Below are positions 3,217-58,597 of a stretch of 64,000 nt of DNA, in pieces; position 1 is the stretch's first letter, and each line of letters starts with the position of its first letter. This DNA is from Candidatus Poribacteria bacterium. GTDB lineage: Bacteria; Poribacteria; WGA-4E; PCPOR2b. The notes under the pieces were generated by a model. It was not told the DNA's origin, did no database searches, and worked only from the letters and a program-made list of their open reading frames with translations. The stretch is taken from the NCBI GenBank assembly GCA_965215015.1, contig OZ244042.1, positions 1,696,001 through 1,760,000 on the forward strand. The letters run 5' to 3'. A program made the position numbers and the translations under genes.

Positions 3217-3398
3217 CTATTTGCCTCCTACAAATGCCTAATCAACAGTCCGCCATCTTTCTCTTTTAGAGCTAAGCCTCAAGTATTTTAGCACACCATC
3301 GGTTTTTATGCGAAAAAAATGGGGCACTAGTGTGCAACTGCTCTGTCAATGGATAGGGGTTTTGGGATCTTTCAGGCTATACTCTATTTTGTCAGTGT

Positions 3399-5510
3399 CA
3401 ATCTCCCCCAAAATCAGTTTAGGGGCGAACCTTACCGACTGTCTGAATCTGGATTAACAGGATTTTAGGATTCCCAGGATTGACTGTCTCCCTTGTCCTT
3501 CACTATCCTGCAAATCCTTCCATCTTAAAGATCCTGATTCTAACAAGTTACAGACTGCTCCTTCCAAAATCATCGCCGCATTCTGTCTGAATCGGGATTG
3601 ATTGGATTTTAGGATTAACCGGATTGACTGTCTCCCTTGTCCTTCACTATCCTGCAAATCCTTCCATCTTGAGCATCCTGATTCTGACAAGTTACAGACT
3701 GCTCCTTCCAAAATCATCGCTGCATTCTGTCTGAATCGGGATTGACTGTCTCCCTTGCCCTTCGCTATCCTGCAAATCCTTTCATCTTGAAGATCCTGAT
3801 TCTGACAAGTTACACAATCTCCTCCAAAATTATCGCCGTATTCTGTCTGAATCGGGATTTACCAGATTTTAGTATTCACCGGATTGACTGTCTCCCTTGC
3901 CCTTCGCTATCCCGAAAATCCTTCCATCTTGAGAATCCTGATTCTAACAAGTTACACATTGCTCCTTCCAAAATCATCGCGACATTTGTCTGAATCTGGA
4001 TTGATTGGATTTTAGGATTCACCGGATTGGCTTTATCCCTTGCCCTGCACTATCCTGAAAATCCTTTCATCTTGAGAATCCTGATTCTAACAAGTTACAC
4101 ATTGCTCCTTCCAAAATCATCGCCGCATTCTATCTGAATCTGGATTGATTGGATTTTAGGATTCACCGGATTGGCTTTATCCCTTGCCCTGCACTATCCT
4201 GAAAATCCTTTCATCTTGAGAATCCTGATTCTGACAAGTTACACATTGCTCCTTCCAAAATCATCGCGACATTTGTCTGAATCGGGATTGATTGGATTTT
4301 AGTATTCACCGGATTGACTTTATCCCTTGCCATTCACTATCCTGCAAATCCTTCCATCTTGAGCATCCTGATTCTGACAAGTTACACAATCTCCTCCAAA
4401 ATTATCGCGACATTTGTCTGAATCGGGATTTACCGGATTTTAGTATTAACCGGATTGACTGTCTCCATTGCCCTTGGCTATCCCGAAAATCCTTCCATCT
4501 TGAGCATCCTGATTCTGACAAGTTACACACTGCTCCTTCCAAAATCATCGCGACATTTGTCTGAATCGGGATTTACCGGATTTTAGTATTAACCGGATTG
4601 ACTGTCTCCATTGCCCTTCACTATCCCGAAAATCCTTCCATCTTGAGCATCCTGATTCTGACAAGTTACACATTGCTCCTTCCAAAATCATCGCGACATT
4701 TGTCTGAATCGGGATTTACCGGATTTTAGTATTAACCGGATTGACTCTCTTGCCATTGCCCTTGGCTATCCTGCAAATCCTTCCATCTTGAGCATCCTGA
4801 TTCTGACAAGTTACACATTGCTCCTTCCAAAATCATCGCGACATTTGTCTGAATCGGGATTTACCGGATTTTAGTATTAACCGGATTGACTCTCTTGCCA
4901 TTGCCCTTGGCTATCCCGAAAATCCTTCCATCTTGAGCATCCTGATTCTGACAAGTTACACACTGCTCCTTCCAAAATCATCGCGACATTTGTCTGAATC
5001 GGGATTTACCGGATTTTAGTATTAACCGGATTGACTGTCTCCATTGCCCTTCACTATCCCGAAAATCCTTCCATCTTGAGCATCCTGATTCTGACAAGTT
5101 ACACATTGCTCCTTCCAAAATCATCGCGACATTTGTCTGAATCGGGATTTACCGGATTTTAGTATTAACCGGATTGACTGTCTCCATTGCCCTTGGCTAT
5201 CCCGAAAATCCTTCCATCTTGAGCATCCTGATTCTGACAAGTTACACATTGCTCCTTCCAAAATCATCGCGACATTTGTCTGAATCGGGATTTACCGGAT
5301 TTTAGTATTAATAGGATTGCCTCTATCCACTGCCCTTGGCTATCCTGACAATCCTTTCATCTTGAGAATCCTGATTCTGACAGTTTACAGCCCCTCCTCC
5401 AAAATCATCGCCGCATTCTGTCTGAATCTGGATTGACTGGATTGATTTTATCAGCTATTAGTGCTGATTATCCTGCGAATCCTTTCCTCCTGAATATCCC
5501 ATTCTAACCA
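3399..5510. repeat. Tandem array 1: 15 copies of a ~106-bp imperfect palindrome separated by ~35-38-bp hsdM-3'-end-like linkers (unit ~143 bp)
   Basis: Palindromes (TGTCTGAATCxGGATT...ATCCTGATTCTGACA) start at 3440, 3584, 3728, 3844, 3987, 4131, 4274, 4415, 4558, 4701, 4846, 4991, 5134, 5277 and 5419 (last one degenerate). Linker is AGTTACACATTGCTCCTTCCAAAATCATCGCGACATT and variants. An extra degenerate linker lies at 3399-3416. Confidence 0.95.
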
Positions 5511-56008: not shown

Positions 56009-56298
56009 AGTCGTTTGTGTCTCCTCTTTTTTATTTTTTGTAATTGCACGATTTATTAGAGAGGGTATCATTGCTAGTAATATCCCTAATAGCGTGTCTA
56101 AATCACGACTTCACACGGAGGATTGGATTTCGCGGATTTTTTATCTGAATGTTCAATCCATTTTTCCTCCGTTATCGTTGCTTATGGAGATTTTTTCCAA
56201 CTAGTAGGTCAGGACTTTTAGCCCGACCCACCCAATTATAACCTAAGTTACTGACTCGGTGCAAACGGAACGTTGCTCGGTAAATGCGCCACCGTCGC

Positions 56299-56535
56299 TC
56301 AGATTCGTTCATGTCTTACCTTTGCCAGTGACGCATTAAGATCTCACACTACTTCGTCCTCTGGTGTGTCGCCAAAGGCATTTTGGAAATGTGCCACGAT
56401 ATTCTCCCATTCCTCCTGCCATGTTGTCGAGTCCGTTTCAAGGAATTTACGCAGCTGTTCGCGCTCAACTTTCGACAGTTTTTTGATTAGTGGTAACAGT
56501 TTTCCGAGGGTAACCGGTTCAGCAATTTGAATCAG
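56299..56535 (-). pseudogene. Small helical antitoxin-like gene remnant downstream of hsdS
   Basis: Manual translation LIQIAEPVTLGKLLPLIKKLSKVEREQLRKFLE...TPEDEVV*DLNASLAKVRHERI*; in-frame stop at 56344-56346; no clean start. Confidence 0.4.
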
Positions 56536-56550
56536 CCTACATCTACCCTT

Positions 56551-57210
56551 TCAATCGGTGGCGATATCAAGTTTGGATGCGTCAATCTCACCGGAGATTA
56601 GTTTTGGGAGCAAGAGGTTGCGGGTTTGGCGGAGGGTGGTATTTTTCAGTGTTAGGTTTATCAATTCCGAAAAGATTGGATTGGTAATTTCTTCAAACTT
56701 GCTAATCACTGATTCTGGCGGGGCTAGCAATGGAATCCCCAACAGATCTGTCTTTCTGATTGCATTGAAGATGGCTCCGCTTCCCATCGTGTCCTCTTCT
56801 TGGAATCTATCTTTCAATTGTTGAAGCAAAAACGCCTGACTCCCACCCTTGCTCCGGATTGCAGAGAGCCCACGACCTATTACAAGTTTCTTGTTTGCGA
56901 TATTTATTCGTCCGACAGGCGCCCGAACACTGAATAATATGTCTCCTACCTTAGCGATACGCTTTTGAATTGTGCAATAAACTCGATCCGTTGGGAATCG
57001 GTTTCCAAAGTCTGTGACCCCCTGATGGAAAGGCAGACCGTCGCCGGTCTCATTGTAGAACTCAGATTTAGGGGACAACCCCATTATGACATGGCACATT
57101 TCACCAAGTCTGCTTACCTCCCATCCTTGCGGTATCAACCCCAACTCCGACTCTACCATTGGCACCCGCTCACGAAGAATTACACGATCCCATTTTCCTT
57201 TTGCCATCAT
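56551..57210 (-). CDS. hsdS: Type I R-M specificity subunit, single-TRD (half) form
   Basis: SELGLIPQGWEV, GDILFSVRAPVG, IGRGLSAI, LRQTRNLLLPKLISGEI. Confidence 0.88.
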   Translation of the reverse strand: MMAKGKWDRVILRERVPMVESELGLIPQGWEVSRLGEMCHVIMGLSPKSEFYNETGDGLPFHQGVTDFGNRFPTDRVYCTIQKRIAKVGDILFSVRAPVGRINIANKKLVIGRGLSAIRSKGGSQAFLLQQLKDRFQEEDTMGSGAIFNAIRKTDLLGIPLLAPPESVISKFEEITNPIFSELINLTLKNTTLRQTRNLLLPKLISGEIDASKLDIATD

Positions 57211-58183
57211 ACTGCTCCTTCCAAAATCATCGCGACATTTGTCTGAATCGGGATTTACTGGATTTTAGGATTCACCGGATTGACTTTATCCGCTGCCCTT
57301 CACTATCCTGAAAATCCTTCCATCTTGAGAATTCTGATTCTGACAAGTTACAGACTGCTCCTTCCAAAATCATCGCCGCATTCTGTCTGAATCTGGATTT
57401 ACCGGATTTTAAGATTCACCGGATTGACTCTCTCCATTGCCCTTCACTATCCTGAAAATCCTTCCATCTTGAGAATCCTGATTCTGACAAGTTACACAAT
57501 CTCCTCCAAAATCATCGCCGCATTCTGTCTGAATCTGGTTTTACAGGATTTTAGGATTCACCGGATTGACTCTCTCCATTGCCCTTCACTATCCTGAAAA
57601 TCCTTCCATCTTGAAGATCCTGATTCTGACAGGTTACCCCGTCTTGCTGTTTACAGGACGAAGATAAGTGCTCCTTCTTACCTCCCTTAATCCCCCCGCA
57701 AGCAGGGGGAGAGGCAAGACTCTACGGCTTCTGTTACACTCATTCTTTACATGAGCAAATCTGAATCTGGATTGATTGGATTTTAGGATTCACCGGATTG
57801 ACTCTCTCCATTGCCCTTGGCTATCCTGCAAATCCTTCCATCTTGAGAATTCTGATTCTGACAAGTTACACAATCTCCTCCAAAATCATCGCGACATTTG
57901 TCTGAATCGGGATTTACTGGATTTTAGGATTCACCGGATTGACTCTCTCCATTGCCCTTGGCTATCCTGCAAATCCTTCCATCTTGAGAATCCTGATTCT
58001 GACAAGTTACACACCCTCCTCCAAAATTATCGCGACATTCTGTCTGAATCTGGTTTTACCGGATTTTAAGATTCACCGGATTGACTCTCTCCATTGCCCT
58101 TGGCTATCCTGCAAATCCTTCCATCTTGAGAATCCTGATTCTGACAAGTTACACACCCTCCTCCAAAATCATCGCGACATTCT
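57211..58183. repeat. Tandem array 2: six copies of the same palindrome plus hsdM-end linker, between hsdM' and hsdS
   Basis: Palindromes at 57240, 57384, 57526, ~57758, 57899 and 58041; interruption at 57632-57757 containing a CCCCCCGCAAGCAGGGGG REP. Confidence 0.95.
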
Positions 58184-58385
58184 CAGAAATCCGTTTCTCC
58201 AACTGATACGCCTCAGCGTTCAGGGCTTCCAATTCCTCGTTAAGCTCCCCCAACCGTTCCGCGAAGTCAAACGCCTCTACTTCCCGGTCTGCAACCCCGA
58301 CATACCGTCCCGGATTGAGGCTCCACCCCTGCGCCTCAATTTCTGCAACCGTAGCCACCCTGCAGAGTCCGGGCACATCACGGCA
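58149..58385 (-). pseudogene. hsdM: 3' fragment of a type I R-M methyltransferase
   Basis: [29 protein letters not shown]...[12 protein letters not shown]...[13 protein letters not shown]; in-frame stop just upstream; catalytic domain absent. Confidence 0.8.
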
Positions 58386-58597
58386 GCTTCGGCCTTAGTG
58401 CGGTACTCTGTTCTCACGAACCCATAGCCGGACGATTCAGAGATTTCCCGGAGAAGTTCGAGAATGCGGACCATGGAACCGTCATTGAACGTGATGTGGC
58501 GATGGTAGCGATTGCTTGGCGGATAAAACTGAGGCCACCCACCAGTTGGGTATTGCGCTTCGAGGATATGAGAAAGGCTTGTTGGTAGCGCGGCTCG

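Follow-up and report, generated by a model that had tools for sequence, protein, structure and literature searches.

A hairpin repeat of Candidatus Poribacteria, biased to restriction–modification gene ends, forms arrays beside decayed hsd fragments

We analysed a stretch of 64,000 nucleotides (nt) from a Candidatus Poribacteria genome (GenBank assembly GCA_965215015.1, contig OZ244042.1, forward-strand positions 1,696,001–1,760,000), hereafter the window, in which an array of hairpin repeats occupies the minus strand between the end of the type I modification gene hsdM and the specificity gene hsdS. This array (array 2, window positions 57207–58183) is assembled from units of 142 nt, each consisting of H, an imperfect hairpin of ~107 nt, and L, a ~33-nt copy of the hsdM 3′ end. 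H is a REPIN/MITE-like hairpin repeat native to this Poribacteria lineage, and in the window's own genome it is strongly biased to the 3′ ends of restriction–modification (RM) genes. Array 2 itself belongs to a decayed and translocated fragment and cannot act as a switch. The explanation that we favour, and hold with modest confidence to be the right one, is that H is a selfish element which recombination at L or at H has dispersed and multiplied.

Structure of the hsdM–hsdS array

The original prediction described palindromes alternating with re-copied last codons of hsdM, and six H/L units could indeed be located by nhmmer, Tandem Repeats Finder and shuffle tests (Table 1). The L cores lie at 58162, 58020, 57879, 57505, 57363 and 57220, and the hsdM-type frame stops at 58149. 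A 26-nt core of H has 12 matches in the window against none in 100 shuffles, and a 20-nt core of L has 19 against a shuffle mean of 0.02, so the repeats are not a product of chance; Tandem Repeats Finder reports a period of 142 with 92–95% matches. The final copy, L6, was read directly as proposed: it encodes NVAMILEGAV*, with a TGA (57209–57207) that overlaps the hsdS ATG (57210–57208). The resulting ATGA at 57207–57210 preserves the overlap of hsdM stop and hsdS start, a layout of translational coupling.

Parts of the earlier description need amendment. All six hairpins are present, but the array is broken between H3 and H4 by a repeat unrelated to H. The arms are truly inverted, yet the palindromes are imperfect and fold with a z-score of only −1.69, both as DNA and as RNA (14 and 12 of 200 shuffles, respectively, fold as well). 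Homology to hsdM and hsdS holds on both sides of the array, but the former is a stump of 75 codons and the latter is half-size. The nested repeat has a G/C-rich inner palindrome, and a 95% identical copy of it lies beside another H array (genome positions 4809302–4809409).

A genome-wide hairpin repeat

H is built of two inverted arms of ~42 nt, the same segments matching unit positions 20–61 on one strand and 86–127 on the other. Its termini, GTC(A/T)GAATC and GATTC(A/T)GAC, are conserved between subfamilies with different interiors, and each of the two motifs has ~250 occurrences against ~45 expected. An nhmmer profile of H gave 348 hits in the window's own genome (G000; 5.94 Mb, a single contig), which resolve into 241 elements in 82 loci. 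Many of these are tandem arrays with periods of 100–371 nt, and 40 of the 82 are solitary, mostly single arms. All 82 loci lie between open reading frames (ORFs); one element of 41 nt overlaps two ORF ends by 13–17 nt. With a repeat distributed across the genome in this way, the H+L unit is not specific to hsd genes, contrary to what had been supposed.

BLAST with three units detected H in all 19 genus genomes, in 22 of 24 genomes of the family and in 4 of 6 of a sister family, and in none of 10 from two further families. A scan for the exact H–L junction over one genome per species, the window's genome excluded, returned five stretches in four genomes, all of them Candidatus Poribacteria. The profile was made from hsd-type units, and visual inspection turned up divergent hairpins that share these ends and do not enter the counts; the H counts are therefore lower bounds for the wider superfamily, and the enrichment reported below is valid for the detected set only.

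Bias to restriction–modification gene ends

The earlier account set against itself a genome-wide repetitive extragenic palindromic (REP) element with no enrichment at hsd loci. H is genome-wide, but the lack of enrichment at restriction loci failed to appear. Of 29 ORFs with an Eco57I or N6_Mtase domain, 13 are followed by an H locus in the 400 nt after the stop; for other ORFs of at least 150 amino acids (aa) the figure is 41 of 3981 (odds ratio 78, Fisher p = 6e-18). This p value is too strong, since some paralogues may be duplicates that took their arrays with them and are not independent. Upstream of the same ORFs no bias was seen (3 of 29 versus 51 of 3981). H also stands just downstream of five of the 142 other ORFs of at least 900 aa, and all five are of defence type. 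Pfam assigns the 19 large ORFs that abut arrays to type ISP (three), Eco57I/TaqI_C type IIG (nine) and DUF1156 methylases (two), with one each of a DUF499 protein, an SNF2+PLD protein, a type III res, a type III mod and a SACS-domain protein. The other 37 H-abutted ORFs are mostly housekeeping genes; in all, housekeeping genes make up about two thirds of the ORFs with H just downstream.

Of 40 loci that abut an ORF, 9 have an array in which the final 45 nt of that ORF are copied again. Two tails account for most of these: that of type IIG genes, ...EEIAIVEGAENV*, with a stop located within the start of H, and that of type ISP genes. The type IIG tail also occurs in units that do not lie beside type IIG genes. 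At one locus (G000 5660581–5663469), a DUF1156 methylase gene ends in the type IIG-type tail IVEGAENV*, with its stop in the hairpin, so a repeat unit has replaced the C-terminus of this unrelated gene. Long duplication between the two flanks, the only kind scored because element ends are imprecise, was found at 5 of 82 H loci and was rejected as a trait of the whole family. The motif pair GCGAT...TGGAGG was likewise discarded as a general target of H: out of 241 elements, 12 have both motifs in the upstream flank and 14 in the downstream flank, these flanks being essentially RM-type linkers, and the pair is also absent by eye from the solitary elements inspected.

The arrangement recurs in other genomes. 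The profile detects H behind 6 of 25 Eco57I genes in five relatives. On visual inspection, a hairpin that shares the ends of H but differs in its interior stands after most genes with the terminus ...ENV*, and next to it come an incomplete re-copy of that terminus and the start of the following gene. In G000 there are type IIG genes with arrays on both sides. Downstream of glyA, an array and a type IIG gene occur only in G000 among 19 genus genomes. The region after glyA, read in the 19 genus genomes (loci L218–L236), is a variable hotspot in which the genes differ in almost every genome; in two of them (G010 and G013) the next gene follows directly.

The position of H invites an explanation at the level of RNA, in which the stem would stabilise or insulate the upstream mRNA and uncouple the next gene, the re-copied L would be retained by selection for restoring the ribosome-binding site and start of hsdS, and array length would tune the ratio of M to S subunits. 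REP-type elements at gene ends act as mRNA stabilisers. In many loci the start of H falls at, or within, the stop codon of the preceding gene (distance −6 to +60 nt), and the L copy distal to hsdM always carries GGAGG or AAGGAG with an overlapping start. In EcoKI the translation of hsdM and that of hsdS are known to be coupled (PMC3510504). We nevertheless judge a role of this kind to be quite unlikely: the fold is only modestly better than that of shuffles, Rfam returned no match for H at E values up to 1, a terminator scan found none inside array 2, and the arrays of the window flank dead genes, those of 14 units having no obvious regulatory logic. On the plus strand of array 2 (57280–58169, antisense to hsdS), there are two weak sigma-70-like hexamer pairs per unit, with 9 of 12 positions matched (13 pairs versus 2.3 expected).

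hsdM–hsdS junctions in related genomes

A survey of hsdM–hsdS junctions, as the original prediction had proposed, was informative about the origin of L. With the C-terminal 300 residues of the HsdM of a relative (G002) as query, orthologues were found in 46 of 81 genomes from the order. We read 30 of the loci, from three families, and every one ends in ...ENV(A/T/G)xIL..*, including 12 loci of families f2 and f3 that are without H; L is therefore the native 3′ end of hsdM. One member of the same genus (G006) has a plain coupled junction, GTGTGA, in which the GTG of hsdS overlaps the TGA of hsdM, and no hairpin. In family f1, H lies within 1.5 kb downstream of the hsdM stop in 10 of 18 loci, two of the eight negative loci offering less than 140 nt of flank.

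Eight f1 genomes carry a re-copy of L at the 3′ end of H, 107–1447 nt after the hsdM stop and followed, where readable, by the hsdS start (three regular-expression matches for such re-copies in relatives were false). In the L attached to hsdM it is the 5′ part that is continuous with hsdM, and in the distal L it is the 3′ part that is continuous with the following sequence, a pattern that fits a crossover inside the conserved 14-nt core. The cargo enclosed by the two L copies, with H and L at its borders, varies among 13 related genomes; it comprises BrnT/CopG pairs, PDDEXK_3 nucleases, 8xMP, ThsB-TIR, Schlafen, HTH and DUF1016 proteins. One genome (G020) has cargo and a 60-nt re-copy of the gene end with no hairpin, so the hairpin is not required for the duplication of gene ends.

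State of the array 2 locus

Collapse of array 2 was expected by the original prediction to recouple hsdS to hsdM, and expansion to uncouple it. The locus speaks against this. The hsdM stump, whose homologue in G002 is a full HsdM (N6_Mtase and HsdM_N by Pfam), is joined upstream to a fragment of a pectate-lyase gene. There is neither an hsdR nor a full hsdM in the neighbourhood, whose genes encode an oxidoreductase, an M24 peptidase, an MBL-HTH protein and a TPR protein, and the three intact hsdM genes of the genome are located elsewhere, with different, unrelated ends and without an array. hsdS and H are absent from the corresponding site in all 19 genus relatives; in the two whose ORFs were read (G003 and G005), it holds a gene for a 354-aa membrane protein. 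In G000 the site is a patch that runs from the lyase fragment through the hsdM stump, the array and the half hsdS to a stretch of 479 nt before the oxidoreductase gene (56072–56550), which has no match in relatives.

A type I RM shufflon would present intact hsdR, hsdM and hsdS, silent hsdS copies, inverted repeats and a recombinase at the locus, and what we find is a single half hsdS and an hsdM stump. Since the locus is a decayed, translocated fragment, collapse of the array could not recouple a working system. It is true that the last L keeps the coupled junction and that near-identical direct repeats could slip, but a phase-variation device that couples and uncouples hsdS and hsdM, and so alters type I specificity or activity, is contradicted at this locus by the truncated genes, by the missing hsdR, by the intact hsdM genes that do without an array, and by the secondary nature of a patch that is missing from the site in 19 relatives. 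We consider it extremely improbable. Short-read contigs from four runs in three studies end at 57240 and 58146, and no contig bridges the array; the joints in these data have short sides and may derive from other copies.

Array 1 and other linker loci

A second array in the window (array 1) lies at a non-hsd site between moaD and an aldo-keto reductase (AKR) gene (Table 1). A regular-expression search for L in G000 gave 34 matches, of which 26 are L copies in five loci (6 in array 2, 14 in array 1 and 2, 3 and 1 units in three small loci) and 8 are scattered at 4 mismatches. Three types of linker can be told apart: type a is identical to the hsdM end, type c combines the hsdS-proximal junction with the start of H, and type b is intermediate; both arrays are ordered from a to c. 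Units 3–8 of array 1 are 96–100% identical to one another, with a super-period of 433 nt, so they were amplified in place, and recently. The units of array 2 are 93–95% identical to one another and to those of array 1.

The site between moaD and the AKR gene is preserved in other states among relatives. In one genome (G017) it holds a partial H, a full H, an L, an hsdS fragment, a toxin–antitoxin pair and an hsdS end; in at least nine others it is collapsed, with the two genes ~340 nt apart, and the one that was read (G005) retains a half-H scar. The intergenic site is a decayed hsdS-module site, and both arrays of the window would be leftovers in which decayed hsd fragments stand beside locally amplified units. 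The native origin of L, the coupled junction, the cargo of the relatives and the hsdS fragments that accompany H+L at a non-hsd site together show that recombination at H+L units has moved hsd pieces. The idea that the units serve as homology arms for hsdS cassettes survives in part, supported by the H+L units before hsdS fragments and by the varying cargo, but without the hsd specificity once attached to it.

Other loci carry related units. Near-full hairpins at G000 3261371–3261466 and 3264284–3264378 stand beside TPR genes and are followed by a diverged 'ENRV'-type L (...TTTTAGAGGATAGGGTATAATAG); H+L units of this type, an L type seen in other genomes, escaped the search with the 14-nt core. 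An array of 100-nt period downstream of a type IIG gene (G000 3401969–3403009) combines one hairpin arm with a different module of ~60 nt, which also flanks loci 1838142 and 3712712.

Table 1. Features of the two arrays and their borders (window positions)
Feature	Position	Strand	Basis
hsdS 3′-end remnant (PKLILGEIDTDKIE), directly after array 1	3395..3440	−	Read; positional homologue of the G017 hsdS remnants
Array 1: 15 H and 14 L in the same orientation, non-hsd site between AKR gene and moaD	3440..5508	−	Repeat searches
hsdS, half-size, 219 aa, one target-recognition half	56551..57210	−	ORF; Pfam Methylase_S E 3e-8, residues 27–165; NCBIfam type I S subunit match weak
L6, final hsdM-end copy, with AAGGAG; stop overlaps hsdS ATG (ATGA)	57207..57239	−	Sequence read
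H6 hairpin	57240..57346	−	nhmmer 113.9 bits, model positions 1–107
L5, linker type c (GGAAGGAGCAGTCTGTAA), hybrid of hsdS-proximal junction and H start	57347..57383	−	Linker comparison
H5 hairpin	57384..57490	−	nhmmer 117.1 bits
L4, linker type b (GGAGGAGATTGTGTAA)	57491..57525	−	Linker comparison
H4 hairpin	57526..57631	−	nhmmer 113.4 bits
Nested small dispersed repeat, unrelated to H, at linker position	57632..57759	−	150 BLAST hits in genome
H3 hairpin, without last 2 nt	57760..57864	−	nhmmer 110.3 bits, model positions 1–105
L3, linker type b	57865..57898	−	Linker comparison
H2 hairpin	57899..58005	−	nhmmer 118.5 bits; folded
L2, linker type a (gene end)	58006..58040	−	Linker comparison
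H1 hairpin, begins directly 3′ of hsdM stop codon	58041..58147	−	nhmmer 114.0 bits
hsdM C-terminal remnant, 75 codons; L1 is its final ~33 nt	58149..58376	−	85% identity over 75 aa to G002 HsdM C-terminus
Pectate-lyase gene fragment, abuts hsdM remnant	58380..58597	−	Pfam Pec_lyase E 3.8e-20, profile positions 62–136 of 292 only

Search for a linked enzyme

Were H the site of a dedicated system, a nuclease, HUH/RAYT or recombinase gene should be consistently flanked by it, as the original prediction reasoned; we found none among the Y1 transposases and the one tyrosine recombinase family to which the search was limited, and no autonomous parent element among their genes. G000 has two broken Y1_Tnp fragments, neither of them near H; in 24 relatives, the 20 best Y1_Tnp loci all lack H within 1.5 kb. 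A RAYT was accordingly rejected as the partner of H. Three of the 11 Phage_integrase matches in G000 have H 60–100 nt upstream; one, a Xer/Cre-like tyrosine recombinase, stands directly behind an H+L array, and two are degraded paralogues of it. Across the Xer/Cre-like recombinase family to which it belongs, 27 of 30 fetched loci are without H, those with H being G000's own locus, L052 and L056, and this link too was dismissed. The H-adjacent Xer-like protein scores at most 72 bits against NCBIfam cut-offs of at least 220 and matches no integron-integrase equivalog. The Xer/Cre-like recombinase occurs in 21 of the 31 genomes that were searched, one of them G000, where it has 14 matches, many of them broken; loci recorded for it include L029 (50254–51168), L030 (2864645–2865331) and L031 (3847736–3848676). 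It is probably part of an unstudied mobile element.

These results bear on a second way of reading the repeat, in which H together with the gene end is the site of a dedicated system, resembling integrons or dif modules, that swaps defence cassettes at the 3′ junctions of RM genes by means of an enzyme acting in trans, for which the conserved hairpin ends would be the recognition sites. The cassettes would be toxin–antitoxin pairs, PD-(D/E)XK nucleases, TIR and Schlafen proteins, hsdS alleles and whole type IIG genes. The varying cargo bracketed by H and L at hsdM–hsdS junctions is what such a system should leave behind, as are the arrays on both sides of type IIG genes, the array and type IIG gene after glyA that set G000 apart, and the succession of gene end, hairpin, partial re-copy and next gene start that also follows type IIG genes in other genomes; the over-represented termini and the enrichment at RM gene ends point the same way. 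If it were true, defence islands would be built or reshuffled by this route, and stacks of empty units would be the idle form of the site. However, no candidate enzyme was found in the families searched, the Xer/Cre-like recombinase being mostly without H and below every NCBIfam cut-off and the Y1 transposase loci lying away from it. Moreover, the ORFs with H just downstream are for the most part housekeeping genes, many H loci are single arms, and G020 shows re-copy and cargo with no hairpin. We therefore regard a dedicated cassette system as unlikely. A related proposition, that in Poribacteria the hairpin with its re-copied gene end is the recombination site of an undescribed cassette system, whose modules of cargo, hairpin and gene end integrate at the 3′ ends of RM genes, leaving them unbroken and bringing the start context for the next gene, seems to us rather doubtful.

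Recombination model

The favoured explanation of a selfish repeat can be set out in steps. A unit of H with one 33-nt L would integrate at an hsdM–hsdS junction by a single crossover inside L, either of Campbell type or by unequal exchange, the partner being a molecule or a sister copy that carries both H and L. In the L-H-L product, the upstream L would end hsdM, and the downstream L would provide the ribosome-binding site of hsdS and the overlapping stop and start. Further unequal crossing-over between copies of H or of L could then stack units into arrays, and through the shared homology the arrays, nearby gene pieces and cargo might be moved, swapped or deleted. We infer this crossover mechanism from the arrangement of the repeats, and with it that no dedicated enzyme would be needed. 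The hybrid linkers, the polarity from type a to type c that both arrays share, the scars, the amplification in place and the lack of a linked enzyme would all follow from it.

Several observations weigh against the model. A passive repeat alone does not explain the bias of H to RM gene ends. The ends of ~10 nt that are conserved across differing interiors look like sites of protein recognition. At 33 nt, L is short for exchange driven by RecA, and the first L-H-L arrangement could not be reconstructed. Since long flank duplication is confined to five loci, the re-copying of gene ends is a trait of RM junctions and not of the H family as a whole. The crossover account covers neither the RM-end bias nor the conserved termini; for that reason we accord a dedicated system of cassette exchange a low but real probability, and an RNA-level role a similar one.

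Comparison with known systems

The closest counterparts of H arrays are the REPIN clusters of Pseudomonas fluorescens SBW25, which the cited sections of Bertels & Rainey (2011; PMC3116915) describe as tandem repeats of REPINs that include flanking sequence. Within the compass of that description, the likeness extends to inverted REP-like arms, a hairpin of ~100 nt, hundreds of extragenic copies, singlets that resemble decayed halves and ordered clusters with their flanks; H differs in that no cognate RAYT was found alongside and that its arrays reach 14–17 units, as against four in SBW25 (PMC3116915). Of the features that define a REPIN, H thus has the inverted arms, the dispersed extragenic copies kept in a lineage and the ordered clusters with flanks, and lacks the RAYT. 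A further difference lies in the flank that is repeated, which in H is the 3′ end of an RM gene, and in the strong bias of H to such genes.

BIMEs of enterobacteria are mosaics of palindromic units with conserved linkers, amplified in tandem at gene ends and between the genes of operons, as H arrays are. Their linkers, unlike L, are not copies of the upstream coding end, and we know of no link between BIMEs and defence genes. Bacterial MITEs such as Correia/NEMIS, RUP and ERIC are small, non-coding, bounded by terminal inverted repeats and situated at gene junctions, features that recur in H; for H, the duplication amounts to 25–60 nt of the gene end, and an autonomous parent was not found by the search described above.

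Other parallels come from site-specific systems. The attC sites of integrons, including the Vibrio cholerae repeats, and the pdif modules of Acinetobacter plasmids are imperfect palindromes at the 3′ ends of modules, with swappable accessory genes that include toxin–antitoxin pairs. H differs in having no integrase or attI platform, in its dispersal over 82 loci, in the tandem stacking of empty units and in a junction that repeats a long stretch of the gene end. Phages and integrative and conjugative elements (ICEs) that use att sites in tRNA genes carry the 3′ end of the target, which is kept whole, and leave a second copy of that end at the far junction. The H 'element', by contrast, may be only 107 nt long, has no linked integrase and takes protein-coding RM genes as targets. 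At the pneumococcal ivr/cod and tvr loci, as far as the cited portion of Kwun (2018; PMC6265443) describes them, hsdS pieces with repeats in hsdS are excised and reintegrated with a tyrosine recombinase of the locus. The resemblance, to that extent, is in hsdS pieces and a toxin–antitoxin pair rearranged by recombination at repeats (PMC6265443). In our case the repeats are an extragenic hairpin and the hsdM end, and the array 2 locus contains no recombinase.

In a literature search, mostly at abstract level, we found no description of hairpin arrays at hsdM–hsdS junctions or of REP-type repeats biased to RM gene ends. If the arrays reflect selfish repeat growth only, they are a neat case of REPIN-like clustering from a phylum without cultured members, and a caution that an array of repeats next to hsd genes is not necessarily a switch. 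Sponge symbionts are known for very large defence repertoires. The bias to RM 3′ ends, the regeneration of gene ends and the varying defence cargo bracketed by the units would offer a testable route by which defence islands in such symbionts gain and swap genes, and in these three traits H exceeds the descriptions of the REP, REPIN and MITE families.

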